Positions 4,356 to 39,021 of a DNA stretch of 41,273 nucleotides are shown in pieces. The notes beneath the pieces were generated by a model that did not search any database, was not told where the DNA came from, and worked only from the letters and a program-made list of their open reading frames with translations. Position 1 is the stretch's first letter; each line of letters opens with the position of its first letter. Source of the DNA: Escherichia phage vB_EcoS_fTaEco01. The stretch is from the sequence record MT711527.1; one strand, given 5' to 3'. The position numbers and the translations under genes were made by a program.

Positions 4356-4419
4356 AGTGCCTGTGATTATTCCAGTTATTCCACTCAATTGTAAATGTTG
4401 GAATAAACTATTCGAATAG

Positions 4420-4448
4420 TTGACTTTTCACCAAAAATGTGCTAAGCT
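4420..4448 (+). promoter_or_regulatory. sigma70-like promoter (TTGACT-17 nt-TAAGCT)
   Basis: Hexamers at 4420-4425 and 4443-4448 with 17-nt spacer; the ACTATTCGAATAGT palindrome abuts the -35; near-identical architecture at 34591-34619. Confidence 0.5.
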
Positions 4449-12635: not shown

Positions 12636-12650
12636 TGTTGGTGTAAGTGA

Positions 12651-12679
12651 ATAGTACCCTATTATATTGGGGTGTGCAA
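12651..12679 (-). promoter_or_regulatory. promoter (TTGCAC-17 nt-TACTAT) for the minus-strand accessory cassette
   Basis: Reverse complement gives TTGCAC-ACCCCAATATAATAGGG-TACTAT; nearly identical to plus-strand promoters at 34888-34916 and 36181-36209. Confidence 0.5.
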
Positions 12680-22750: not shown

Positions 22751-22888
22751 CTACTCTTCTGATAACTTCTCCAGTACAAACGCCAGTTGCGCATTAGCGG
22801 CGTCTCTCTGCTGCCGTAGCCGTATAACCTCCTCCTCAAGTTCCTTGATACGTTTTTGCAATGCCGGAATCGGGGCTATGATGTTCAT
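22751..22888 (-). CDS. hypothetical small coiled-coil protein (45 aa)
   Basis: ATG overlaps helicase stop (ATGA coupling); charged heptad-like sequence; below ORF-track length cutoff. Confidence 0.3.
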   Translation of the reverse strand: MNIIAPIPALQKRIKELEEEVIRLRQQRDAANAQLAFVLEKLSEE

Positions 22889-24309
22889 TTCTTACCTCGT
22901 CTCTTCATGTAATTAAGCAACTCTTCCTGGACCGATTTCTTCTCGTCAGTACGCGAGGCAACAACCTCGTCCAGCGTGTCTTTAGCAACGATGTGATAGA
23001 GGAACACTGGTCGCTCATGGCCCGCCTGCTTCTGGCGCACCGGGCCTATACGCTCGACAACCTGCAAATAGTGCTCAAGGTTCCAGCCTTGCGAAATAAA
23101 CGCCAGATGATGTCCGCCGTCCTGTAAATTCAAACCATGGCCGGCTGACGCGGGGTGAACGCACAAAATCTCGATTTCACCCCGATTCCACGCTTCCATC
23201 TGCTTATTACCTTTCGCACCTTTGGCAAACGCCTGCGCCTGTGGGAATCGCTTAAGGATGCGCTCCAGTTCGTGCTTGAACTGATAAGCCACAAGTAACG
23301 GTGCGCCCTGTAGCTCCTCAACAATCGACTCAAGCGCGTCCAGTTTCGTATCGTGTACTTTCTCCCAGTCTTTGGTTGCCTCACCGTCTGGCCCCGACAC
23401 ATATACGGCACCGGAGGCAATCTGCAAACACTTTGACGTCTTCGCCGCCGCGTTAGCCGCTTCAACTTCTCCGCTCTCCAGTTCCGCGAATAACTTCTCC
23501 TCCATATCTAGGTACGCCTGACGTGCCTTCTTCGGCAGGTCGATTTCAACCGGCACTATAATAGGTGCTTCACACCCAAACCACTCAGCGGCGTCAATAG
23601 TGAGACTAATGTCCTTCATCTTCTGGTGGATCTCATTATCTGCACCAGGACGCGCATGATACTCCCGCGCCATCGCCGACTTACCTTTCTGTACCGAGTT
23701 AAACCATCGGTCGGTGAATGCCGTATATGAGGACCCCAGGCGCTCGCCGGCGTCGATAAACCAGTTCTGACCCCACAGGTCCTTGAGGCCGTTTGGTGAG
23801 GGCGTGCCGGTAAGGTTTATAAAACGCTTAACCTTTCCAAACGCCACCTTACTGAGCGCCTTTGCCCGCTTGCTACCACCTGAACGGCTGCGGAATGATT
23901 TCAGCTTCGTGCTTTCGTCGGCGACGATAACGGTAAAAGGCCAGTCGTCTTTGCCGTAGTAGTCAATCAGCCATTCGATAACTTCGTAGTTTGTACACAC
24001 CACGTTAGCGTCTGATTCCAGCGCCGCGATGCGGCGCTTCTCTGAACCTGTCGCGTCTACGACACGCAGACATGGGAAATTCCATTTCTCTTGCTCTGCC
24101 GGCCATGTGCCGGACGCAACACGTAAAGGAGCCAGAATTAACACGCGGTCGTCGTCCGTAAGTTGCCCGTTGCGGAACAGGCGGTTTAAAGTCCACAGGA
24201 CGCTGCCAGTCTTCCCGGCGCCCATGCTCGCCCAAATATTACAGCGATGGTGCTGCAACATGAACGAGGTCATGAGCTTCTGGTATTCGCGCCTTTGAAA
24301 CTTACTCAT
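22885..24309 (-). CDS. superfamily-2 DNA helicase (SNF2/DEAD-like)
   Basis: Walker A SMGAGKTG, motif II VADEST, C-terminal helicase-domain-like region. Confidence 0.7.
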   Translation of the reverse strand: MSKFQRREYQKLMTSFMLQHHRCNIWASMGAGKTGSVLWTLNRLFRNGQLTDDDRVLILAPLRVASGTWPAEQEKWNFPCLRVVDATGSEKRRIAALESDANVVCTNYEVIEWLIDYYGKDDWPFTVIVADESTKLKSFRSRSGGSKRAKALSKVAFGKVKRFINLTGTPSPNGLKDLWGQNWFIDAGERLGSSYTAFTDRWFNSVQKGKSAMAREYHARPGADNEIHQKMKDISLTIDAAEWFGCEAPIIVPVEIDLPKKARQAYLDMEEKLFAELESGEVEAANAAAKTSKCLQIASGAVYVSGPDGEATKDWEKVHDTKLDALESIVEELQGAPLLVAYQFKHELERILKRFPQAQAFAKGAKGNKQMEAWNRGEIEILCVHPASAGHGLNLQDGGHHLAFISQGWNLEHYLQVVERIGPVRQKQAGHERPVFLYHIVAKDTLDEVVASRTDEKKSVQEELLNYMKRRGKK

Positions 24310-25126
24310 TTACGGCCCCCATAAACGCCTTTATAAATTCGGCGGCTACTTGCGGGACGATGGCATTGCCGTAACCGCGCAATCGTCCCACTCTTGCGGG
24401 TATCCCATTAGCCAGCGGGAATGCGCCGGGTTCAACCGGCCGGAACTTTCCATCACGGCATCCGAGCCAGTCAGCATCTGACCAGAAGCCGTGGTGCGGG
24501 TTGGTTGACTCGCTTTCAATCCCTGCTCTGTTGAGTAGTCCAGCCTGTCGAATGTTCTGTCCCTCCCGTCCGTGCGAATCACTGTCTCTCCGCTCCCTCT
24601 GAAGTCGTTCGCACACGGTGTTGGCCAGTTGCTGCGCTCCGAAGAACAATCGATTCCTTTTGTGCGGTGCGCCGACGCTACAAGCTGGGAGTACGGCAAA
24701 CCCGACGGCGTAGTCTTCTCTTTCCAGGTGAGTTTGTAAATCGCACATCCACGATTTTGCAATTGCTGCCGCAACCTGCTCCCCAAAGATAACTGGAGGG
24801 CGGCACTCGCTGATGAGGTCGAGGAACACAGGTGCGAGGTGTCTCTGGTCGAACTGTCCGAGTTGCTTTCCTGCCGTGCTAAACGGTTGGCAAGGCGGGC
24901 TTCCCGTCCAGAGAGGCGCATCTTCCGGAACTCCCGCAAGTCTGAGCGCGAGAGGCCAGCCGCCGATACCAGCGAAAAAATGACACTGGGTGAACCCGTC
25001 AAGGTCTTCTGGCTTAACTTCGGTAATGCTTCTTTCATCTACAACTCCAAAAGGTATGTGACCATGTTTTATTAATTCACGCAGCCACGCGGCTGCGCCT
25101 TTATCCCATTCGTTGTAATAGTTCAT
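24302..25126 (-). CDS. DNA (cytosine-5)-methyltransferase, short form
   Basis: Motif I FAGIGG, motif [11 protein letters not shown], motif VIII-like HKRNRLF, C-terminal GN; only 274 aa. Confidence 0.7.
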
Positions 25127-25314
25127 TTTGCCACCAGAACTAACTCTTTACGCCCGAACGCCGTGACGTTACCCGTTACATCTTCGATAACCAGTTTACC
25201 GTTCGACTCGACGAACACCGTATCAACGGCAACAGGCTGGCGTGTCTTAACGTTGAAAATCATGTCACCCGGTACGATGTCACGTGCTGGTTTACGGTCA
25301 TATTCGTGTTTCAT
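25123..25314 (-). CDS. hypothetical protein
   Basis: 63-aa ORF with AAGGA RBS, immediately downstream of a minus-strand promoter. Confidence 0.4.
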   Translation of the reverse strand: MKHEYDRKPARDIVPGDMIFNVKTRQPVAVDTVFVESNGKLVIEDVTGNVTAFGRKELVLVAK

Positions 25315-25344
25315 TTCTCAATTCCTTATATTGTTGGTGTGTGA

Positions 25345-25629
25345 TTAACTATAATAGCTCGCTATTAGGTCGTCAACCTGTTTAAACGAACCAACGATAA
25401 AAACATTTGCACCGCGTTTACGCATCCGCTCGTGCTCACGTATCTGGTGCGGGTCTGGCTTCGTGTTTTCGTCTTTCTTAACCTCGACGAACCATATGAC
25501 GCCGCCAGGGAGAATTACCAGCAGGTCGGGAGCGCCGGAGCGCCCCTCGTAGGAGAGCTTACGAACGAGGCCGCCGATGGCCTCGAATCGCTCTTTTGCG
25601 TATTTCTGTATTTTGCCTTCCGGTGTCAT
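25345..25629 (-). CDS. VRR-NUC domain nuclease
   Basis: PD-(D/E)xK-type core GAPDLLVIL...VIWFVEVKK; ATG 25629 preferred over TTG 25644. Confidence 0.6.
   Translation of the reverse strand: MTPEGKIQKYAKERFEAIGGLVRKLSYEGRSGAPDLLVILPGGVIWFVEVKKDENTKPDPHQIREHERMRKRGANVFIVGSFKQVDDLIASYYS
25348..25376 (-). promoter_or_regulatory. internal promoter (TTGACG-17 nt-TATAGT)
   Basis: Reverse complement TTGACG-ACCTAATAGCGAGCTAT-TATAGT; lies in the 3' end of the VRR-NUC gene. Confidence 0.45.
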
Positions 25630-25778
25630 GAGCGCGGAATCCAAGTAAGGAAAGCCCCGCCTAGAACGGCAACGCCAACAAACTTAAAGAACAGGCCGTA
25701 ACAGAACATCGCGGCTATTCCCGCACCGAGTAACAGCGCGAGCATGGTTACTATCGTCCAAAATACAAACATTGTCAT
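25626..25778 (-). CDS. hypothetical small membrane protein (50 aa)
   Basis: GAGGGG RBS; two hydrophobic helices; stop overlaps VRR-NUC ATG (ATGA). Confidence 0.3.
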   Translation of the reverse strand: MTMFVFWTIVTMLALLLGAGIAAMFCYGLFFKFVGVAVLGGAFLTWIPRS

Positions 25779-25860
25779 AATACGCACCCCTCACGTTTCG
25801 TATGTTCAACACCACAGCGCGGGCAGATTCGACAGTCTTCTTCATAAAACCAGTAAATTT

Positions 25861-25992
25861 TCATTCCAGCACCCACAGATAAATTGCGATGAACATGCCC
25901 AATATGGCAACCATCATGCCGTATTGACCCTCGTGACAGTAGACACCGGCAGCAAATCCCGCCAGTACCGCGATAATCAGTTTACTTGGCAT
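25861..25992 (-). CDS. hypothetical small membrane protein (43 aa)
   Basis: Hydrophobic ORF starting 11 nt inside the 3' end of the DNA polymerase gene; weak RBS. Confidence 0.2.
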   Translation of the reverse strand: MPSKLIIAVLAGFAAGVYCHEGQYGMMVAILGMFIAIYLWVLE

Positions 25993-28162
25993 AACGCTTC
26001 ATCTCCGCGCCTTCTGCTACAAGAGGGAACCCCTCGGCCCACTCTGGTAATTCGCACATCAATCGTTCCAGTTCTGCGACATTGTATTCTGGTAAATCTG
26101 GTGTCTCGCAGATAATCTCATCGTGAACATGAAGCACAATCGGGTAGCCGTTTGCTTCGACGTTCAGCAGTGCATTAGCCAACAAATCACGGCACAGCGC
26201 CTGAGTGCAGTTTTCCACCAGTTTACCAGAGTAGGTGTACTGGAAGCCCCACTGACGGGTTAACTGGTTTTCGCCCTGGTACTTGATGCGCACGTTGGTA
26301 GACACCTTTCCATCTTCGTCTGTCTCTTTCGACACGCTCAACCCGACGCCAGGGTATGACATAACTCGACCAGACGGCAACGTCATACGCAACCACCAAC
26401 CGGCGACTTTGTTGCCGTTGTTGTCCGTTTCTACGTTGCGCGAAAACTTAACTCCCCGCGGCCCTGCGGTGAACTCTTTGCCCGGATTGCGGATAGCTGC
26501 CATAGCTGCGTCTTCAATATCCCGCCAGAAAGCTACTGTTTCCGGGTGTGACTCACGCCACATACGCTTGATAGCGTCGCAGGTACGCCACACTTTCTTA
26601 TCAAGAATATAAGATGGTCGGTCATCATTTTCACCTGGACGTGGTGGTCGCTTGGCTTCCTGAATACGCGCCCACTCATATCCACGTGCGGTAGCAGCCC
26701 AGATGTGGTCGGGGAAAGTCCCGTCCATTGTTTTTGCCATATCAACAAGGTCAAGGCCGAGGTTCTTGGCGAACTGTACGAATGCGCCGACACCACCCGC
26801 GTAGCCAAGTCCAAGTTCGCATGCCTTACCAATCTGGCGTAAGTCTTTACGTTCTTTCTTAATGTAATCCGGCTCCATGCCGAACATCTTGCCTGCGGTT
26901 ACGCAGTAAATATCCAGCCCGGCACGGAACGTATCAAGCGCGGTTTCTTCGCCAGCCAGCCACGCCAAACCGCGGCCTTCAACGTTCGAGTAGTCGGCGA
27001 CGACAAACTTATGTCCAGCTTCCGGGATAATGCAGCTGCGAACCGTAGATGCCGTTAGCTTGGCTACATCAAAACGGCGATGTGCTCGGCCCTTAAGTAA
27101 TGCTGAAATACCTTTATCCAGTTCATCATCGTGATAGTACCCACGCGCCAGGTTCTGCGGCTGGAAGCCTTTACCCGCAAATCGTAACGTACGTTTAGCT
27201 CCACCATACTGGATGCAACCGCGACGGCGGTCGTCAGACGAGCGGCCTAACAGCAGCGGGTTATATTTCGTTGACGCAGTGGATGCCGCCCCTAGGCGCA
27301 TTTCTATAATCGTGCGAGCGTCGTCCGGTAAATCATCGTCAGCAAGCAGGTCGTTAAGCGTAGACTTCTGCGCGTTGTGGATGCGATGCGCAGGCGCCAG
27401 TTCACGCAGAATCGGCAGGAAGTCCTTTCCGGTAAGCGAGCCGCCGTATTTACGTCGGGCTTCTTCCTGTAACTGCGCTTTGTGTTTCTCAACGGCTTCA
27501 ATCGCGGCTTCCGCCAGCGCAACGTCGACCTTAAACCCGCGGTCGTTAATTAACTGGTCCAGTTCCAGTACACGGTCTTCGAACTCGGAGTTACCCCAAC
27601 GCGGCAACTTATGGAACACTTCACGCATCGCGGTGATGTCGCTAACGGCGTACTTGATGAACAGCGCCCACTCATCCGGGTGCGTTTCAGCAGTGTAGCG
27701 GCGAATTTTGTAGTTCTTCGGCGTCGGTTTAGAGAAACGCTGAATAAGCGCTTTGCCGCGTTTGTCTTTCGCGTTGTCTGCAGACACGCCAAGCACTTCG
27801 CACAATGCGTCGAGTGAACCCGGCAGCGCGTGACGAAACGCCCAAATCATCGTATCAATGGTGTTGCTTACGGGAATATCAAAACCCCAGCAGTGCTTCA
27901 TGATGAGTCTGTCGAACATTGAGCCGTTGTGCCACACCATCTTAATACGGCTGTTTGGTTTCACCAGACGGCGTAACGCGCGGTGCAAATCACCCGGCAT
28001 GTCGCTGCCGTTGGTGCAATCCCATACCTGCACAGGCTCGTCGTCAAAAGCATATGTGCAGATTAGAACTTCGGTGGTTGGATGTTCGGCGTAAGCGTAG
28101 GAGCCGACTTTCTTCAAATCGGCTTCGGAGAATGTTTCAAAGTCTAAGAACAGGTAACTCAT
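25982..28162 (-). CDS. DNA polymerase, family A, with 3'-5' exonuclease domain
   Basis: Exo I FLDFET; motif A VVADYSNVEGR; motif B RQIGKACELGLGYAGG; motif C LHVHDEI. Confidence 0.85.
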   Translation of the reverse strand: MSYLFLDFETFSEADLKKVGSYAYAEHPTTEVLICTYAFDDEPVQVWDCTNGSDMPGDLHRALRRLVKPNSRIKMVWHNGSMFDRLIMKHCWGFDIPVSNTIDTMIWAFRHALPGSLDALCEVLGVSADNAKDKRGKALIQRFSKPTPKNYKIRRYTAETHPDEWALFIKYAVSDITAMREVFHKLPRWGNSEFEDRVLELDQLINDRGFKVDVALAEAAIEAVEKHKAQLQEEARRKYGGSLTGKDFLPILRELAPAHRIHNAQKSTLNDLLADDDLPDDARTIIEMRLGAASTASTKYNPLLLGRSSDDRRRGCIQYGGAKRTLRFAGKGFQPQNLARGYYHDDELDKGISALLKGRAHRRFDVAKLTASTVRSCIIPEAGHKFVVADYSNVEGRGLAWLAGEETALDTFRAGLDIYCVTAGKMFGMEPDYIKKERKDLRQIGKACELGLGYAGGVGAFVQFAKNLGLDLVDMAKTMDGTFPDHIWAATARGYEWARIQEAKRPPRPGENDDRPSYILDKKVWRTCDAIKRMWRESHPETVAFWRDIEDAAMAAIRNPGKEFTAGPRGVKFSRNVETDNNGNKVAGWWLRMTLPSGRVMSYPGVGLSVSKETDEDGKVSTNVRIKYQGENQLTRQWGFQYTYSGKLVENCTQALCRDLLANALLNVEANGYPIVLHVHDEIICETPDLPEYNVAELERLMCELPEWAEGFPLVAEGAEMKRYAK

Positions 28163-28176
28163 TATTTTTGACCCTT

Positions 28177-28202
28177 AGTAAAAAGGCCCAATGAAGGGCC
28201 TT
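28177..28202 (-). terminator. intra-operon terminator/attenuator hairpin between SSB-like gene and DNA polymerase
   Basis: On the minus strand: AAGGCCC-TTCATT-GGGCCTT followed by TTTTT. Confidence 0.35.
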
Positions 28203-28221
28203 AGTTAAATTGATTCAGATA

Positions 28222-28848
28222 TTAGCGACGACGACGCTCGCGGCGCGGTGCTTCATCTTCTTCGTCGTCTTCCAGGTCATTTACGCTGGCAGCGACTTTA
28301 GAACCGCCAAACGCTTTGCCTTCGCCAATGTATTTAATCGCCAGCAGGTTAACGCCGAGGACTTTATATTTCTGACTGAACCAGATTTCAACGCTTACGT
28401 TAGCGACGCAGCCGCTGTAAACCTGTTCACCTTCAATCTGTTCGCCGTCTACATTGAAGTCCTGTTCTACCTGAGTCTCGCCTTTTTTAGAGGTTACAAT
28501 CAGTGGCTGTTTCTGTGCCTTCGCCTTGAAGTAGAAGCCTTCCGGGAAGTCTTCAAACGGATTGTCGCGCTCGGCAATGTCTTTAATCGCACATTTATCC
28601 ATGTGCTTACCTTCGCCGTAGTTGGACTTCATCCACTTCTCAGCGGCAGCTGCGCCCAACGCTTCTTCAACCACAGCGTAAACGGTGTCGTAGAGCGCGT
28701 CGATTTGTGCGTGGTCAGACGGCAGGATGATAGTCGCGCTGTACTGGCCTTTAGTGATTGAGCCATCATCGTTTTCACGGTCTTTTTCGCGTTCGAATAC
28801 GTTAACCCATGCAGTGTTTACTTTACGCAGATTCAGTTTAATACCCAT
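28222..28848 (-). CDS. single-stranded DNA-binding protein-like (DUF2815-type)
   Basis: 208 aa with acidic tail DLEDDEEDEA; sits between a Cas4-like nuclease and the DNA polymerase. Confidence 0.5.
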   Translation of the reverse strand: MGIKLNLRKVNTAWVNVFEREKDRENDDGSITKGQYSATIILPSDHAQIDALYDTVYAVVEEALGAAAAEKWMKSNYGEGKHMDKCAIKDIAERDNPFEDFPEGFYFKAKAQKQPLIVTSKKGETQVEQDFNVDGEQIEGEQVYSGCVANVSVEIWFSQKYKVLGVNLLAIKYIGEGKAFGGSKVAASVNDLEDDEEDEAPRRERRRR

Positions 28849-28901
28849 CGTGATTTCTCGCTTTTCAGTTTACTCCGGGAACTGCCCGGCCAGTGATTAG
28901 A

Positions 28902-28930
28902 ACTATAATAGCTAACTATTCAGGTGTCAA
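28902..28930 (-). promoter_or_regulatory. internal promoter (TTGACA-17 nt-TATAGT)
   Basis: Reverse complement TTGACA-CCTGAATAGTTAGCTAT-TATAGT just upstream of the SSB-like gene. Confidence 0.5.
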
Positions 28931-28934
28931 CACT

Positions 28935-30188
28935 TTATTCCAAATCTTCTTCACTAACCTGATTCCACTCAGGACGTTTGTCGTCTGCCGTTGCGACACA
29001 TGGTGCGCCCGGCTTACGGGTAATAAACGGCTCAAGCGCTGCCATCTCATCCGCCGAAAGAACTTTTGCTGCCTCCGTAGGGGACATCAATACCTCTTTT
29101 TTGAGAATGTCGCCGTGTGACACTTCAATCGCATCGGCATCTTTCCACGCACGGTTACCCATCTTACCTTCAACCAGCTTGTACCCAGGAACTTTCTTAC
29201 CGGAATGCAATGCGGCGGTCATCGCTTTCTCAACCTTGTCGATGTGCTGGCGTAACAGCGGCAACTTCTCATACTCAACTACGAGTTGCTCCGTCGTCAG
29301 TTCCAGCACAAAGTCGTCTTCAAGTTCTTCCGCCAGTACAGAATTAACCGTCTTTGTACGCGCGGCACACTGTTCAGAGAACCGGCACCACTGGCAACCA
29401 TCTACTGACGGCTTAAAGTCTGACGCTTTCAGGTTCTTCTTACCGCGGAAATATGCATCAAGTGCTAACAGTGCTCGTTTTTGTGCGAACTTAGCGAACA
29501 GTTCCAGGCCTTCAACCGAGATATCCCACTCCGACGCACCCCCAGCGTACGGCTGGAAGATGACCAGACGAACAGTTGTTATGTTATAACGTCTCTTGAG
29601 TCGGCGATAGACACCGAGCGCGTAAAGCATAAGCTGCTTGTTTTCTTTCGCTTCAACACGATGCCGTCCAGTTTTAAGGTCGCCAATAATGAGCATGTGC
29701 TCGTCGGTGTTCGCCAGTTCCTGGACAGCAACGAGGTCAGCCGTTCCGAACGTCTCGACACCTTCATACCCAGGATGCAATACCTCAGTAAGATTGACTC
29801 GCATTTCCAGCTTGGCGTAAGTCGCTACGTCGATAATCGCTTTGCAGTAGTCGGTGTACTTGCGCACCTGCTCAATCATGTCCGCCGTAATCAGTACCGC
29901 GCCTTTCATTGGGCTGATTAGCGCCTTAATCTGGCCTTTACCTTCATCCAGCACGTAAGCGCCGACTTCGCGCTCTAACGGCAACGCGGTTCCTTTGATG
30001 TACTGGTTTAAATGGACCTCAGCTATAGTGTGGCACGCGGTTCCTGTAACGGCGGCTTTACCGGACGTGTTAGGAATATCTTTTTCACAGGCCAGAGAAG
30101 CCGGGCAGGTTAGCCACTTTTTAGCGCCTGACGGTGATAGTAAGGCGTGTACATCGTTATTGCCGCCGCGCTCTTTTAGAATCATCAT
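28935..30188 (-). CDS. PD-(D/E)xK family nuclease, Cas4/RecB-like (DUF2800-type)
   Basis: N-terminal LLSPSGAKKWLTCPASLAC, C-terminal Cys cluster DGCQWCRFSEQC consistent with Cas4-like Fe-S nucleases. Confidence 0.6.
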   Translation of the reverse strand: MMILKERGGNNDVHALLSPSGAKKWLTCPASLACEKDIPNTSGKAAVTGTACHTIAEVHLNQYIKGTALPLEREVGAYVLDEGKGQIKALISPMKGAVLITADMIEQVRKYTDYCKAIIDVATYAKLEMRVNLTEVLHPGYEGVETFGTADLVAVQELANTDEHMLIIGDLKTGRHRVEAKENKQLMLYALGVYRRLKRRYNITTVRLVIFQPYAGGASEWDISVEGLELFAKFAQKRALLALDAYFRGKKNLKASDFKPSVDGCQWCRFSEQCAARTKTVNSVLAEELEDDFVLELTTEQLVVEYEKLPLLRQHIDKVEKAMTAALHSGKKVPGYKLVEGKMGNRAWKDADAIEVSHGDILKKEVLMSPTEAAKVLSADEMAALEPFITRKPGAPCVATADDKRPEWNQVSEEDLE

Positions 30189-30442
30189 TTAGTGCCCTCC
30201 GGCAGTTCCGGTAAATACATCCAGTGAGTTATGCCCATCTCGATATACCGTTTCGTATATAGCTGATTTCCGTTCTCATCCAGCCCAGCCGTAATGTCGT
30301 CGAAATAGTCCTGTATATGTACAAAATCGATCCCACCTTCCGGGAACCCGTTATCGTCATATTTACCACCATCTACTGAGCAAACTAAAACAGAATCATC
30401 TTTTGACTCCGGCAATGCTTCGTTTACACTAACCCAATTCAT
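30185..30442 (-). CDS. DUF551-like hypothetical protein
   Basis: C-terminus GITHWMYLPELPE matches the THWMPLPEPP signature also seen in 35665-35865; ATG 30442 preferred over GTG 30457. Confidence 0.45.
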   Translation of the reverse strand: MNWVSVNEALPESKDDSVLVCSVDGGKYDDNGFPEGGIDFVHIQDYFDDITAGLDENGNQLYTKRYIEMGITHWMYLPELPEGTK

Positions 30443-30711
30443 ACCCTGTTCTCCCACTGGTCAATTAAATGTCGCGTCTTATGGTCGCAATGCATAGCCC
30501 AACCATACATCGACTCGAAGACATAAAAGTCAGGCTTGGCGAATGTCGTGCGCTTAATCTGCGACACGTGACGGCCTATATCTTTAGACAGCGGTACTTT
30601 GCCTAAGTACGCCATCTCTTCCATCTGGTGTGCACCGGACGGCGCACGTAACAGCCATAGCGCCTCTGTGTTATCCCGCCGGTCAACGGCGCGGTATAGT
30701 TGGTAAATCAT
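30439..30711 (-). CDS. hypothetical protein
   Basis: 90-aa ORF, GAGGG RBS, ATGA-coupled to downstream gene. Confidence 0.4.
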   Translation of the reverse strand: MIYQLYRAVDRRDNTEALWLLRAPSGAHQMEEMAYLGKVPLSKDIGRHVSQIKRTTFAKPDFYVFESMYGWAMHCDHKTRHLIDQWENRV

Positions 30712-30754
30712 AATCCCGACCCTCGGTTAAAGCGGCCCGAAGGCCGCGGGATAG

Positions 30755-31276
30755 TTATTCTTCTTCGAAATACTTGTTCTTGATTGCTGTCAGGCGCTCC
30801 AGATACTCAGCCAGGTCTTCGTCTTTAATCGCTGCAATCTTCATCTTCTTACCGGTAAACTCTTCCAGCAGTTCGTCAGAATCGTCGCACGCGGCATCGC
30901 TTGGGCCTTCGTTAATCGCATCGTCGATAGCCTGAATCTGGTCGCGCAGATACTGGTAATCGACTTCTTCTTTCTCTTCTTCCGGCTCTGGCGTTGGCTC
31001 CTCTACTTTAGCTTTACGCGGCTTGCGCTTCGGCTTCTCTTCTTCTGCTGGTTTAGTGTCGACGATGTCTTCACCTTCAACCGGGATTTCTTTCGCCTTC
31101 TCGACTTCTTCAAGTGCTTTAGCCAGTTCTTTTTTAACTGTCTCTACCCCAGTTACCGCGACGTCAACAGTCAATTCACCTACAGATTTGCTAGTCGGTT
31201 GTTTCACACTGTTTGCAGCAATCAGTTCGTGGGCGACTACGAAACGTTCCAGTAATACTAAGAATTTCTCTAACAT
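30755..31276 (-). CDS. acidic hypothetical protein (first gene downstream of promoter 31308-31336)
   Basis: 173 aa, strongly acidic with a short basic stretch (KPKRKPRKAK); strong GAGGAG RBS. Confidence 0.45.
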   Translation of the reverse strand: MLEKFLVLLERFVVAHELIAANSVKQPTSKSVGELTVDVAVTGVETVKKELAKALEEVEKAKEIPVEGEDIVDTKPAEEEKPKRKPRKAKVEEPTPEPEEEKEEVDYQYLRDQIQAIDDAINEGPSDAACDDSDELLEEFTGKKMKIAAIKDEDLAEYLERLTAIKNKYFEEE

Positions 31277-31307
31277 TTGTTTCTCTCCTCTCGTTTGGTA
31301 TGGGCTA

Positions 31308-31336
31308 ACTATAATAGCGAACTATTCACTTGTCAA
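31308..31336 (-). promoter_or_regulatory. promoter (TTGACA-17 nt-TATAGT) for leftward operon
   Basis: Reverse complement TTGACA-AGTGAATAGTTCGCTAT-TATAGT. Confidence 0.5.
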
Positions 31337-31340
31337 TGGG

Positions 31341-31369
31341 CTTTTCTAAAATAATTAATATGGTACTAT
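31341..31369 (+). promoter_or_regulatory. possible rightward promoter with extended -10 (TGG-TACTAT)
   Basis: TG-n-TACTAT at 31361-31369 upstream of the regulator gene; -35 poor. Confidence 0.3.
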
Positions 31370-31400
31370 TCACATATCAACTGACTAAGGAGTAATTGGC

Positions 31401-31616
31401 ATGCAACCATCTGAACTAGGTATCCGTGTAGAGCAACGCCGTAAAGAACTCGGTATCTCCCAGCGCCATCTGGCTGTCCTGGCCGGTGTTTCCCAAGGCG
31501 CAATTAACCAGCTTGCACTCGGTGTAACTCAGGACGTCCGCCCGGCGACGCTGTTTAAACTGGCGGAAGTGCTTGAAGTAGACGCCAAGTGGCTGGCGTT
31601 CGGTGAAGGGGCTTAA
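31401..31616 (+). CDS. XRE-family helix-turn-helix transcriptional regulator (Cro/CI-like)
   Basis: 71 aa with HTH core LGISQRHLAVLAGVSQGAINQLA; AAGGAG RBS; own terminator; only plus-strand gene inside the minus-strand block. Confidence 0.7.
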   Translation: MQPSELGIRVEQRRKELGISQRHLAVLAGVSQGAINQLALGVTQDVRPATLFKLAEVLEVDAKWLAFGEGA

Positions 31617-31631
31617 CGCCCCTTTCTTTTT
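31606..31631 (+). terminator. rho-independent terminator
   Basis: AAGGGGC-TTAAC-GCCCCTT followed by TCTTTTT. Confidence 0.6.
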
Positions 31632-31633
31632 AC

Positions 31634-33895
31634 CTATTCCAAATCCTCCTCTGTCACTGTCAGCATTTCATTCGGTTCGTATATTGTCTTAGGAATTTTG
31701 TTGTCGTTTATACCCCACGGCAGCCGGTACTGCTTAGGTATTGGCCTGTTGTTGTTATCCAGACCCGAGACGATAATCCCGGCCTCATGCATCTCTTCCA
31801 GTTTCTTTCGAAGGTCGTTATTAGCGTTAATCGGTACGCCGTAACTATCTTCTTTCGCCGCTTTGACGATAGCGGACATAGAAAACCCGCGCTTGTCGTC
31901 ACCCTGCTCCTGCAATTTACCCAATGCGTAAATAACCGTAGCCTCTTTGGAATCCAGTTTCTCGAACTGGCCTACCTTTTCTTTAACGGCTTCCTTCTGT
32001 TCGTCGGTCATACCTTCTACTTTCTTCACGAAGACAGAGAAGGCGTTGAAGTTGACAAAGACATCAATATGCGGATTTCCCGCGTCAAAATCGCGCACAT
32101 CGTCGCTACTGTACCCTTCTGGAAGACCCATGAAGTTGTGAGTTGGTTCTTTCTTTTCTGGTGGTTCCGCTATCTGAATCTTCTGTATTACGAATCCTCT
32201 GGCTTTCTGCCGTTCTCCGTTTCGGTTCTTTATGTGGTACAGGTTTATCTCTAAGTTGTTATCGTTGTCCGGTTTATGCAGAAACATCCCGTTATCGATG
32301 GAGTTGTGAAAATCACTACCACCTTTCGGCATCATGCCGTTCTCGGATGGTACGGTTTCGTCGATGTTTTTAGTCGGGTGCACCATTGCACCTACCGCGG
32401 CGTTAAGCGTCGATGCTATTTCGTTAAGCGCCTGCGCTGCTTCTTTCATAGACCGGTTGTCGTTCTCGTCGAAGCCCGGTATGCAAGTTTGTAGAGTATC
32501 AAACGTAACCTTTACAATTTTCTCTTCACCGGCAACACGGCGCATCATTCTCACCGCCTGGCGGCGCCACGCCTCATCAAGTAAATTACACCCATCGGCG
32601 ACACAATCGATAATGTGCAAGCGGTCCAGGCTATCCCCGAGGGCAATCTGCAAAGACTTTTTATGTCGCTCGAACGACTGCGCACCTTCACCCGCAAAAA
32701 TGAACGCATGTCCTTCTGCGACCTCAGCCCCGCCGAACGCATATCTTTTTTCAGCGGCAATAGCGGCGTCAATCGCCATACTAAATGTTGACTTACCAGT
32801 GTGGGACTTTGCGCAAATGTAGAAGGATTCATTAGTCTGCATAAGGCCGTCTACGACGGAGTAAGCAGGTTCTTTTTCTACTTCCGGCTCGTCTTCAAGG
32901 TCTTCCAGCGTGCAAGTTACAGGCTCTTCGTTCTCTGTGCGGTGCAATTCCTCAATCTCTTCGTCCGGTAAATCCGGCAAAGCCGCACGAATGCTGTTAA
33001 TACTGATAGGTTGCTTGTCTACGTTAAGCTCGTCTGGCAGTCCGCACATACGCAAGGCCAAATGTTGTCGACGGTTAAGTTCAGTGCAAGCGCCGTTGTT
33101 TGTGTGCTGGCACACGAAGCGCACTTCTTTACCGTCAAGCATAATGCTGGTGGAACCTTTGCCTGTATGCAGATGTTCATTAGGGCATGGCACTTCATAC
33201 CCTCGGCCGGAAGATAAAGCGTCAAGGCCCAGCTCGGCTTCGCAGAAATGAGCTATATCTGCGTTAAGCCCGTGCTCATCGGCGGCAAGTGTCTTAGCCT
33301 CGCGTTTACGCAGCCCCATCTCTTCGGCTTTCTTGATGTACCGCTCCGCACGGATAACACGCCCTTCTGTAACCGTTATCTTAGACTCTTTATGCGGCAG
33401 GTAGATGAGGCGGTTGCCGTCTTCCGTGCAGTGGTCGCGCAGCGATTCATCTATTTCTAACTCGGCACAAATAGCACGTTGCACCATCCACGCGTCGTTA
33501 GAGTTAAACGGCGTGCGAGCTGGAACCAGAACGCGGAATGCGTAATCCCCGTTTTTACACGCGTGCTGGTGTGACGCCGTTGTATGCAGAATGTTGAAGA
33601 ACGGCGCATTCTTAAATTTGCGTGTCAGGTTGCGGTACTGAGTACGGTTGAGATGGTCAAAGTCGAACTTAACCACACTGTCTTCCAGAATCGCGTTCTT
33701 ACGGCGACCACCAACAGGTGCGATAGCTTTCTGTTTAATCTTGGCGGCGTCGTACTCTTCCTTAGTCCACGACGGGTCCACGGATAAACGCTTCGATGTA
33801 TCACAGACATACTCCACAAACTGCTCCAGCGGCATTTCACGCGCTACAGGGTTTTTATCGAATGTGTTACGCAGCGTCGCAAAAACAATATTCAT
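31634..33895 (-). CDS. DNA primase/helicase (zinc-binding primase-like N-terminal region plus P-loop ATPase)
   Basis: 753 aa; Cys/His cluster CPNEHLH...CQHTNNGAC; Walker A AKSHTGKST. Confidence 0.7.
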   Translation of the reverse strand: MNIVFATLRNTFDKNPVAREMPLEQFVEYVCDTSKRLSVDPSWTKEEYDAAKIKQKAIAPVGGRRKNAILEDSVVKFDFDHLNRTQYRNLTRKFKNAPFFNILHTTASHQHACKNGDYAFRVLVPARTPFNSNDAWMVQRAICAELEIDESLRDHCTEDGNRLIYLPHKESKITVTEGRVIRAERYIKKAEEMGLRKREAKTLAADEHGLNADIAHFCEAELGLDALSSGRGYEVPCPNEHLHTGKGSTSIMLDGKEVRFVCQHTNNGACTELNRRQHLALRMCGLPDELNVDKQPISINSIRAALPDLPDEEIEELHRTENEEPVTCTLEDLEDEPEVEKEPAYSVVDGLMQTNESFYICAKSHTGKSTFSMAIDAAIAAEKRYAFGGAEVAEGHAFIFAGEGAQSFERHKKSLQIALGDSLDRLHIIDCVADGCNLLDEAWRRQAVRMMRRVAGEEKIVKVTFDTLQTCIPGFDENDNRSMKEAAQALNEIASTLNAAVGAMVHPTKNIDETVPSENGMMPKGGSDFHNSIDNGMFLHKPDNDNNLEINLYHIKNRNGERQKARGFVIQKIQIAEPPEKKEPTHNFMGLPEGYSSDDVRDFDAGNPHIDVFVNFNAFSVFVKKVEGMTDEQKEAVKEKVGQFEKLDSKEATVIYALGKLQEQGDDKRGFSMSAIVKAAKEDSYGVPINANNDLRKKLEEMHEAGIIVSGLDNNNRPIPKQYRLPWGINDNKIPKTIYEPNEMLTVTEEDLE

Positions 33896-34070: not shown

Positions 34071-34304
34071 CTAGCGTTGGGGTTTCTTTTGTCTACGCAC
34101 CGCATTAACCCACTCTCCTTCGCTACGGTAAAAACTGCAATCAAGGATATCCTCTATAGAAAATTTAACTATTTTAGTGGGTCCACAAAAGTTATAAGGG
34201 AAAAGTTCTACATAACACCCATCGTCGGTTATATTTGACGCAATCTTGAAATAATATTTAATGCTGCCGTCTTCGCGGAAGCTACAACCCATACGCCCAA
34301 TCAT
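34071..34304 (-). CDS. hypothetical protein
   Basis: 77-aa ORF ATGA-coupled to upstream HTH gene. Confidence 0.4.
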   Translation of the reverse strand: MIGRMGCSFREDGSIKYYFKIASNITDDGCYVELFPYNFCGPTKIVKFSIEDILDCSFYRSEGEWVNAVRRQKKPQR

Positions 34305-34483
34305 TTCACGTTCTCCTTAATCCATGCTTCAACTTTATTACGGTCGAATGTTCCCGGTAAACGGCGACCCATAACCTTAATACAACAATCCGGGAATTTA
34401 CCACTGCGTAACCAGTTATTAATTGTCTGACGTGTCACCCCAATACGCTCGGCTACTTCATTCTGGGTCATGTAATGTTGCAT
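34301..34483 (-). CDS. helix-turn-helix DNA-binding protein (AlpA/excisionase-like fold), first gene of leftward early operon
   Basis: MTQNEVAERIGVTRQTINNWL HTH core; CAGGAG RBS before ATG 34483. Confidence 0.55.
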   Translation of the reverse strand: MQHYMTQNEVAERIGVTRQTINNWLRSGKFPDCCIKVMGRRLPGTFDRNKVEAWIKENVK

Positions 34484-34887: not shown

Positions 34888-34916
34888 TTGCACACCCCAA
34901 CATAATAGGATACTAT
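34888..34916 (+). promoter_or_regulatory. promoter (TTGCAC-17 nt-TACTAT) for rightward small-gene cluster
   Basis: TTGCAC-ACCCCAACATAATAGGA-TACTAT. Confidence 0.5.
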
Positions 34917-34950
34917 TCACTTATCGAAACGAGACAGAGGAGTGAGGGTT

Positions 34951-36180: not shown

Positions 36181-36209
36181 TTGCACACTAAGATAGAATA
36201 GGCTACTAT
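36181..36209 (+). promoter_or_regulatory. promoter (TTGCAC-17 nt-TACTAT)
   Basis: TTGCAC-ACTAAGATAGAATAGGC-TACTAT. Confidence 0.45.
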
Positions 36210-36240
36210 TCATTTACACAAACGAGAGGAGAGACAGAAT

Positions 36241-38970: not shown

Positions 38971-38992
38971 ATCTATCTTCCGCAATGACTAG

Positions 38993-39021
38993 TTGACTAT
39001 TACTCTCACACCAATTATATT
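38993..39021 (+). promoter_or_regulatory. sigma70-like promoter (TTGACT-17 nt-TATATT)
   Basis: Hexamers with 17-nt spacer downstream of the strong terminator. Confidence 0.45.

Follow-up and report, generated by a model that had tools for sequence, protein, structure and literature searches.

The leftward replication genes of Escherichia phage vB_EcoS_fTaEco01 raise the question of where their transcription begins, and of whether a sequence repeated within the putative start sites has a function of its own. The 41,273 nucleotides (nt) that were analysed (sequence record MT711527.1; hereafter the window) represent the near-whole genome of a virulent K1G-like siphovirus of the genus Kagunavirus, subfamily Guernseyvirinae, and a megablast search with positions 24000-32000 returned 480 phage records, the closest being those of Escherichia phages vB_EcoS_fTaEco03 (98.5%) and K1G (96.5%). 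Three promoter sites, designated A, B and C, sit within the leftward (minus-strand) replication gene block, and each includes the same symmetric element of 14 base pairs (bp). On balance, we favour the reading that they are internal sigma-70 promoters carrying the operator of one phage regulator, for which a Cro-like protein is the preferred candidate.

Promoter sites within the leftward replication block

The three minus-strand sites were found exactly at the positions and on the strand given by the original prediction, with their hexamers and 17-nt spacers. Site A (TTGACG-N17-TATAGT) occupies positions 25376-25348, with the -35 at 25376-25371, the dyad AATAGCGAGCTATT at 25366-25353 and the -10 at 25353-25348. 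Site B (TTGACA-N17-TATAGT) extends over 28930-28902, beginning 4 nt past the stop codon of a DUF2800 nuclease gene, and comprises a -35 at 28930-28925, the dyad AATAGTTAGCTATT at 28920-28907 and a -10 at 28907-28902. Site C (TTGACA-N17-TATAGT) lies at 31336-31308, divergent from the helix-turn-helix (HTH) gene at 31401-31616, with its -35 at 31336-31331, the dyad AATAGTTCGCTATT at 31326-31313 and the -10 at 31313-31308.

A scan of the whole window revealed that sites C and B were its sole 11/12 matches to TTGACA/TATAAT, while 0.35 such matches were expected from Markov simulations; site A, a 10/12 match, tied for third place. The -10 hexamer was TATAGT at all three sites, matching the consensus at 5/6 positions, including the A at position 2 and the T at position 6, and was replaced by TATATT in Jerseyvirus. 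The end of the -10 was separated from the same-strand start codon by 33 nt at site A (start at 25314), 53 nt at site B (28848) and 31 nt at site C (31276), so that the predicted leaders would measure about 25-47 nt, and a ribosome-binding site was present ahead of each start codon. Thus, a -35 close to TTGACA, a -10, a spacer of 17 ± 1 nt, and an orientation and distance suited to a downstream gene were found together at each site, and about 40 genomes of Kagunavirus and Jerseyvirus conserve the hexamers at orthologous positions. Sites A, B and C are therefore very probably real sigma-70 promoters, as had been proposed, and their activity as such can be predicted from these sequence features with considerable confidence.

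A 14-bp dyad in several promoter registers

It had also been claimed that every one of the three spacers carried the heptamer GAATAGT. This is true of sites B and C, but site A has TAATAGC instead, and what is common to all three is a longer and symmetric element, namely the 14-bp dyad AATAG-N4-CTATT followed by ATAGT(T). At each site the dyad starts 4 nt past the -35 and overlaps the beginning of the -10 by one base, its final T. Among all inverted dyads of the form 5-N(0-10)-5 in the window, AATAG-N4-CTATT ranked first with six exact copies, while the runners-up were terminator stems with three to four copies, and the maximum reached in simulations was two to three. When one mismatch was allowed, 10 copies were found (six exact and four with a single mismatch), against 0.91 expected, and 8/10 were located at or beside promoter-like hexamers, in at least three registers relative to them.

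The exact copies other than those of A-C fall within promoters that the original prediction had classed as a separate, first family (TTGCAC-N17-TACTAT). One, at 12650-12663, is placed in a minus-strand promoter predicted to drive the imm and exonuclease genes; another, at 34904-34917, belongs to a plus-strand promoter of the early rightward genes, and the opposite strand there reads TCGATA-N17-TATGTT toward a unit of HTH_17 and primase genes; the last, at 36197-36210, lies in a second plus-strand promoter of the same form. In these promoters the dyad is reversed in orientation and starts 10 nt past the -35, the hexamer TACTAT being the complement of the left arm plus one base, and in the imm promoter of the Jerseyvirus Ent2 the dyad lies 7 nt past its -35. 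The same dyad is thus found in both families with a different orientation and register, which points to a single element behind them. The notion of an independent second family was not upheld on this evidence: as read from the sequence, the two families are two ways of wrapping a sigma-70 promoter round one element.

Further registers were provided by copies with one mismatch. The copy AATATGGTACTATT (plus strand, 31357-31370) overlaps a TACTAT -10 (31364-31369) ahead of the HTH gene, at 44 bp, centre to centre, from the dyad of site C. In a third register, the plus-strand copy ACTAGTTGACTATT (38988-39001) is centred on the -35 of TTGACT-N17-TATATT (38993-39021), a promoter located just past the terminator behind the endolysin gene, downstream of the lysis genes, and conserved with its dyad in K1G, Ro145c2YLVW, Ent2 and buks; Kagunavirus copies carry the mismatch in the left arm (ACTAG...CTATT), those of Jerseyvirus in the right arm (AATAG...CTAGT). 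The two remaining copies are found at 2787, behind the portal-gene terminator, and at 4415, where the dyad forms half of the perfect everted palindrome AACTATTCGAATAGTT abutting another -35. This 16-bp palindrome (4407-4422), conserved in K1G and Ro145c2YLVW, presents the dyad half-sites in the opposite order, and the -35 that it abuts belongs to TTGACT-N17-TAAGCT (4420-4448, plus strand), upstream of the spanin, scaffold and capsid genes.

The use of TACTAT as a -10 on the opposite strand in the first family, together with the presence of genes on both sides at 12650 and 34904, would suit a different explanation, in which the dyad is no protein site but a pair of opposed -10-like elements (xxCTAT on each strand) forming a bidirectional promoter core. 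We regard this as distinctly improbable. At site A the opposite strand offers a GCTATT/AGCTAT-like hexamer without the A that is essential at position 2, but the left arm is no less conserved there than at the other sites; moreover, no plus-strand gene is placed to benefit from opposite-strand transcription at A or B, and the -35-centred dyad at 38988 cannot be a -10 pair.

The conservation of the sites was assessed in 36 IMG/VR loci, collected via the single-stranded DNA (ssDNA)-binding protein, and five GenBank genomes, from which orthologous sites were extracted by BLAST. Conserved orthologous sites were found in 34 loci for A, 30 for B and 37 for C, and variability was counted over the distinct orthologous sequences (27, 24 and 32, respectively). 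In an alignment anchored on the motif itself (the BLAST extraction being independent of it), non-consensus cells amounted to 0.7% in the left arm AATAG, 1.0% in the right arm CTATT and 1.7% in the rest of the -10, against 17% in the 4 nt between the -35 and the dyad, 22% in the dyad centre N4 and 19% in the 10 nt past the -10. In fact, the centre took seven to 10 different tetranucleotides per site among orthologues. The left arm is positioned at about -26 to -22, where, to our knowledge, sigma-70 makes no sequence-specific contact, and its invariance therefore calls for another reader of the DNA. Spacer length was 17 or 18 nt in all orthologues, and in the 13 site copies with 18 nt the extra base always fell between the -35 and the dyad, which indicates that the register of the dyad relative to the -10 is rigid.

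Site A offers a further view of this constraint, since its dyad is in frame with the tail of a nuclease-like protein. The encoded residues that separate the arms differ among relatives (S, N, G, H, D, R), and several genomes have shifted or lost the stop codon; the arm codons (CTA/TTA-ATA and TAT-TAT) showed no synonymous alternative in any relative compared. Invariant arm codons beside a varying tail and stop argue for a constraint on the DNA and not on the protein. Moreover, related genomes held four to six exact dyads each, at the same gene junctions, where 0.01-0.04 were expected, and the control region of the HTH gene was almost invariant in 33 loci.

These figures also bear on the possibility that A-C are plain sigma-70 promoters whose shared spacer sequence is a functionless relic of a duplicated or gene-converted promoter cassette. 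The 5′ untranslated and ribosome-binding regions behind several promoters do resemble each other, and cassettes have been exchanged at promoter junctions, so promoter-proximal sequence does spread by recombination. However, a relic would be expected to decay evenly, but the arms vary by at most 1% versus 17-22% for the centre and flanks, and at promoters with no similarity in their flanks the dyad recurs in different registers and orientations. A relic is, in our view, quite improbable.

More distant Guernseyvirinae have kept a promoter ahead of the ssDNA-binding protein gene but not always the dyad. The Serratia phage Tsm2 has TTGACA-N17-TAAATT with a perfect dyad, phiEap-2 has TTGACA-N17-TATCTT with one mismatch in the dyad, and TO17 has TTGACA-N17-TATATT with two; in SP-031 (TTGACT-N17-TACAGT) and the Klebsiella phage VLCpiS11a (TTGACA-N17-TAACGT) the dyad is absent. 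Since the promoter persists in lineages where the dyad is degenerate or absent, the two appear to be separable functions, and this distribution supports an ancestral and constant promoter on which a regulatory dyad has been gained or lost. The VLCpiS11a lineage has no AATAG-N4-CTATT dyad, and in the control region of its HTH_3 gene a different perfect 12-bp palindrome, ATACTATAGTAT, was observed beside TTGACG, which may be a diverged operator.

Candidate binders of the dyad

The anatomy and conservation of the dyad suggest that some protein probably binds it. The operators of phage 434 Cro are 14 bp long, with conserved outer bases and an uncontacted centre. A dyad of about 14 bp with a variable centre, multiple copies overlapping promoters and an adjacent HTH_3 gene were likewise found here. 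This gene (31401-31616, plus strand) encodes a 71-amino acid (aa) HTH_3 (XRE) protein (Pfam HTH_3, 2e-11) and is followed by an intrinsic terminator of its own at 31605-31625 (plus strand). The closest solved structure to the protein is that of phage 434 Cro, matched over nearly the full length (E 5.5e-7), and the identity to phage 434 was 41% by tblastn. The gene was present in 38/38 loci covering the position and in all distant Guernseyvirinae lineages examined, and its control region holds two dyads, the 31357 copy and that of site C. In K1G (NC_027993.1), an intact HTH_3 gene, 98.6% identical to that of the window, was located at 33428-33640, in a gap of the RefSeq annotation.

The resemblance to the OR and OL regions of phage 434 extends to the layout of the site, with about five conserved outer, four variable central and five conserved outer bases, to the overlap of several operator copies with promoter hexamers, and to the position of a 71-aa HTH_3 protein beside a divergent control region. 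The systems differ in the sequence of the arms (AATAG/CTATT here, ACAA/TTGT in 434) and in the distribution of the copies, which are scattered over about ten promoter-like sites of a virulent genome instead of forming two clusters of three. Furthermore, unlike in 434, neither a CI-type repressor nor lysogeny genes are evident here, and the predicted operator lies mainly in the spacer. We tentatively put forward the 71-aa Cro-like protein as the binder, at close to even chances.

The dyad might instead be an operator read by some other protein, such as the HTH_17 protein, another small early protein or a host factor, which we consider unlikely. The HTH_17 (excisionase/AlpA-like) protein, of 56 aa (34301-34471, minus strand; Pfam 1.6e-8), is encoded by the first gene of the leftward primase-helicase unit, and in TO17 and phiEap-2, where the left arms are degenerate, no HTH_17 gene was found in the stretches compared. 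Taken by itself, it is a rather unlikely binder. No homologue was found in any Serratia phage, yet in one such phage, Tsm2, two promoters carry perfect dyads; proteins of the HTH_17/excisionase type usually act as monomers on direct repeats and asymmetric sites, and a symmetric 14-bp site suits a Cro-type dimer instead. Among host factors, TrpR may be compared: the core of its operator in E. coli, ACTAG-TTAA-CTAGT, has the same 5-4-5 layout with one base per arm different from the dyad, and natural ACTAG variants occur among the dyad copies. However, TrpR requires CTAG in both halves, and most dyad copies have ATAG/CTAT.

Several observations weigh against the Cro-like protein or against the operator reading as a whole. 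First, the recognition helix of the HTH_3 protein reads SQGAINQ in Kagunavirus and SQSLITH in Jerseyvirus, with 51% overall identity, and the arms are identical in the two genera, which is contrary to the simple prediction of one protein for one site. Second, the HTH_17 protein is 80-82% identical between these two genera, and its homologues are almost confined to Kagunavirus- and Jerseyvirus-type phages, nearly matching the clade that bears the dyad. Third, the dyads that Jerseyvirus has at site C and at the HTH gene's own promoter are all imperfect. Fourth, since the right arm overlaps or directly precedes the -10, its conservation could in part reflect constraint on the promoter, and the anchoring of the alignment on the motif bears on the variability figures as a whole. 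Finally, a literature search found no 5′-end, RNA-seq, expression or binding data for Guernseyvirinae, and it yielded nothing of use on the promoters of MB78. When the helices were compared with the arms in Kagunavirus, Jerseyvirus, Tsm2, phiEap-2, TO17/SP-031 and VLCpiS11a, helix position 6 was N or T in lineages bearing the dyad and S where the dyad was degenerate or absent, a contrast of only three versus three lineages. The Cro-like protein is still favoured over HTH_17 and other factors, the diverged recognition helices being a real weakness of this choice.

The element itself has been reported before under another label. A previous study with PHIRE on Escherichia phage fBC-Eco01 retrieved seven copies with the consensus tgAATAGTa-ccTATTat-T and called them phage RNA polymerase promoters, and its list of host promoters did not include any TTGACA-N17-TATAGT promoter (PMC9825357). 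In that set, PP4 (ATAATAGTTTGCTATTATGT) has the form found at A-C, and PP5 (TGAATAGTACCATATTAATT) has exactly the sequence of the one-mismatch copy ahead of the HTH gene (PMC9825357). A similar PHIRE element, 'TAATAGTACCCTATTATGTT', was described in the Jerseyvirus Salmonella phage SGP-C (PMC8790156), and seven PHIRE promoter sequences are listed in the Golestan paper (PMC7203180). The fBC-Eco01 and SGP-C papers thus list the same element, in the same subfamily, as a phage RNA polymerase promoter or an unspecified regulatory element. Relative to both (PMC9825357; PMC8790156), the surrounding sigma-70 hexamers, the dyad symmetry and the selective conservation are recognised here.

Recognition by an RNA polymerase or a sigma factor encoded by the phage, as that label implies, would be highly improbable for this genome. 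The annotations of five related genomes include no RNA polymerase gene, and every open reading frame (ORF) of more than 400 aa in the window corresponds to a terminase, portal, tape measure, tail, helicase, nuclease, polymerase or primase protein. Moreover, the motif, whose orientation to downstream genes is inconstant, forms part of complete sigma-70 promoters spaced at 17-18 nt. This candidate was rejected on two of these grounds, the lack of an annotated polymerase gene in the relatives and the position of the motif within complete sigma-70 promoters.

The binding element of AlpA in P. aeruginosa lies between the -35 and the -10 (PMC9371919), and the HTH_17 protein encoded by this phage belongs to a broad family that includes AlpA-like regulators; a loading site of the Q/AlpA type, or else a MerR-type activator site, was considered for this reason and found to be extremely unlikely. 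The AlpA element is a 6-bp asymmetric site for one monomer, and the contact residues of AlpA reach position 142 (PMC9371919), which makes AlpA far longer than the 56-aa HTH_17 protein. No consistent -10-like pause element was found behind the three promoters, and no MerR-family protein reached the Pfam cut-off among the window proteins scanned. Loading of the Q/AlpA type was rejected in view of the symmetric site, the 56-aa size of the HTH_17 protein and the pause element not found, and activation of the MerR type in view of the spacers, of 17-18 nt here versus 19-20 nt in MerR-type promoters.

The replication array and its predicted regulation

The genes around the three promoters form a leftward array that begins on the right with the primase-helicase gene (31634-33895; this and the following genes on the minus strand). 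The first gene downstream of site C encodes a 173-aa protein annotated as '13.88 kDa late protein' in relatives (30755-31276); behind it lie two small ORFs and the DUF2800/PD-(D/E)XK nuclease gene (28935-30188). Downstream of site B come the genes for an Enc34/DUF2815-type ssDNA-binding protein (28222-28848) and the DNA polymerase (25982-28162), and then the ORF at 25345-25644. The original prediction had placed one site inside the 3′ end of a VRR-NUC gene, and site A does lie within the last 10 codons of this ORF; the identity of the gene is less secure, with a sub-threshold Pfam VRR_NUC match only (E 0.013, below the cut-off) and an annotation as VRR_NUC or Holliday-junction resolvase in relatives. 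Site A precedes a 63-aa gene with no assigned function (25123-25314), a C5 methyltransferase gene with a Pfam DNA_methylase match (24302-25126) and a helicase gene (22885-24309), and the array is closed by an intrinsic terminator at 22746-22727, the sole strong minus-strand terminator. The minus-strand ORFs 24302-25126 and 24346-25038 overlap in different frames, and both are annotated as methyltransferases in relatives, as a C5 methylase and an 'Mte8-like' protein; the Pfam comparison covered the longer ORF. An Rfam scan of the window yielded zero matches.

Host RNA polymerase with sigma-70 would initiate at A, B and C. From site C it would transcribe the 173-aa gene through the nuclease gene; from site B, the ssDNA-binding protein and DNA polymerase genes through the VRR-NUC-like gene; and from site A, the 63-aa, methylase and helicase genes. 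A scan of the window revealed no convincing minus-strand terminator between these units. Sites A and B would therefore add transcripts inside a continuous leftward array and not define isolated operons, since no such terminator precedes either. Site C, in turn, would start a distinct unit, because the HTH gene ahead of it runs in the opposite direction and has a plus-strand terminator of its own. The suggestion that the sites divide the replication block into separately driven units was thus too strong for A and B, and only site C starts a clearly separate one. Internal sigma-70 promoters that subdivide the gene arrays of virulent coliphages likewise have consensus hexamers and 17-nt spacers and depend on host RNA polymerase; unlike these, A-C share an embedded symmetric element and do not merely differ in strength.

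The junctions behind these promoters also vary in gene content. In many relatives, an extra small gene was observed directly downstream of promoter A or C (L025 10300-10700; L011, L015, L021, L022 and L037 at site A; L010, L012, L021, L023, L032, L034, L038, L039 and L041 at site C). Each insert brings along a copy of the 15-20 bp ribosome-binding region, which is thereby duplicated, one copy on either flank, and in L025 the insert is made up of an 83-aa ORF with a GC hairpin behind it. In view of these inserts, the conserved promoter/ribosome-binding junctions act as insertion points for cassettes.

Behind site B, a stem-loop with a 5-bp stem (CCGGG-CAGTT-CCCGG; 28875-28889, minus strand) is placed between the promoter and the start of the ssDNA-binding protein gene at 28848. 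All relatives conserve the stem, with a variable loop, and in VLCpiS11a and Tsm2 the central stem pair is flipped from G-C to C-G (CCCGG...CCGGG). Folding of the leader gave an unremarkable hairpin stability (-8.4 kcal/mol, z 0.45). Possible roles of this stem-loop are translational control of the ssDNA-binding protein, as an operator, or stabilisation of the RNA 5′ end. In phiEap-2, TO17, SP-031, VLCpiS11a and Tsm2, the HTH_3 and primase-helicase genes are co-directional and divergent from the nuclease, ssDNA-binding protein and polymerase genes; since Kagunavirus and Jerseyvirus encode the primase-helicase on the opposite strand, the primase module is inverted between the lineages.

Under the operator reading favoured above, the dyad, which is also present in most other promoter-like sites of this phage, would be recognised by one phage-encoded dimeric DNA-binding protein which, bound between or over the hexamers, would block RNA polymerase, so that early and replication genes would be regulated together. 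The same regulator would act at the early rightward promoters with the dyads at 34904 and 36197 and at the imm/exonuclease promoter with the dyad at 12650, and also on its own promoter via the weaker 31357 copy. At A-C the sign of regulation would be repression, and the -35-centred copy at 38988 could be either repressive or activating.

A bolder possibility, which goes well beyond this and which we hold to be doubtful, is that a strictly virulent siphovirus runs most of its transcription through a Cro-only switch, in which one 71-aa protein and one 14-bp operator serve nearly every early and replication promoter. Such a switch would employ the dyad in three registers (within the spacer, across the -10 and with its centre at the -35), turning off the early and middle genes and perhaps activating, from the -35-centred copy, the late-type promoter at 38988. 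If this were true, the circuit would be a minimal, lysogeny-free descendant of a lambdoid immunity circuit. Judged by analogy, the arrangement is a standard promoter-plus-operator of the lambdoid/434 type, placed here in a virulent phage, and so a matter of ordinary phage gene control that opens no new class of mechanism.

The dyad that unites the two promoter families is a more informative feature than the promoters themselves. The sites also offer three compact, near-consensus E. coli promoters with a built-in putative operator as engineering parts. If confirmed, the reading would correct the published label of phage RNA polymerase promoter, and it would provide a simple regulatory map for Kagunavirus and Jerseyvirus, phages often isolated for therapy and biocontrol, by naming the promoters of their replication genes together with the single operator and regulator that probably time them.

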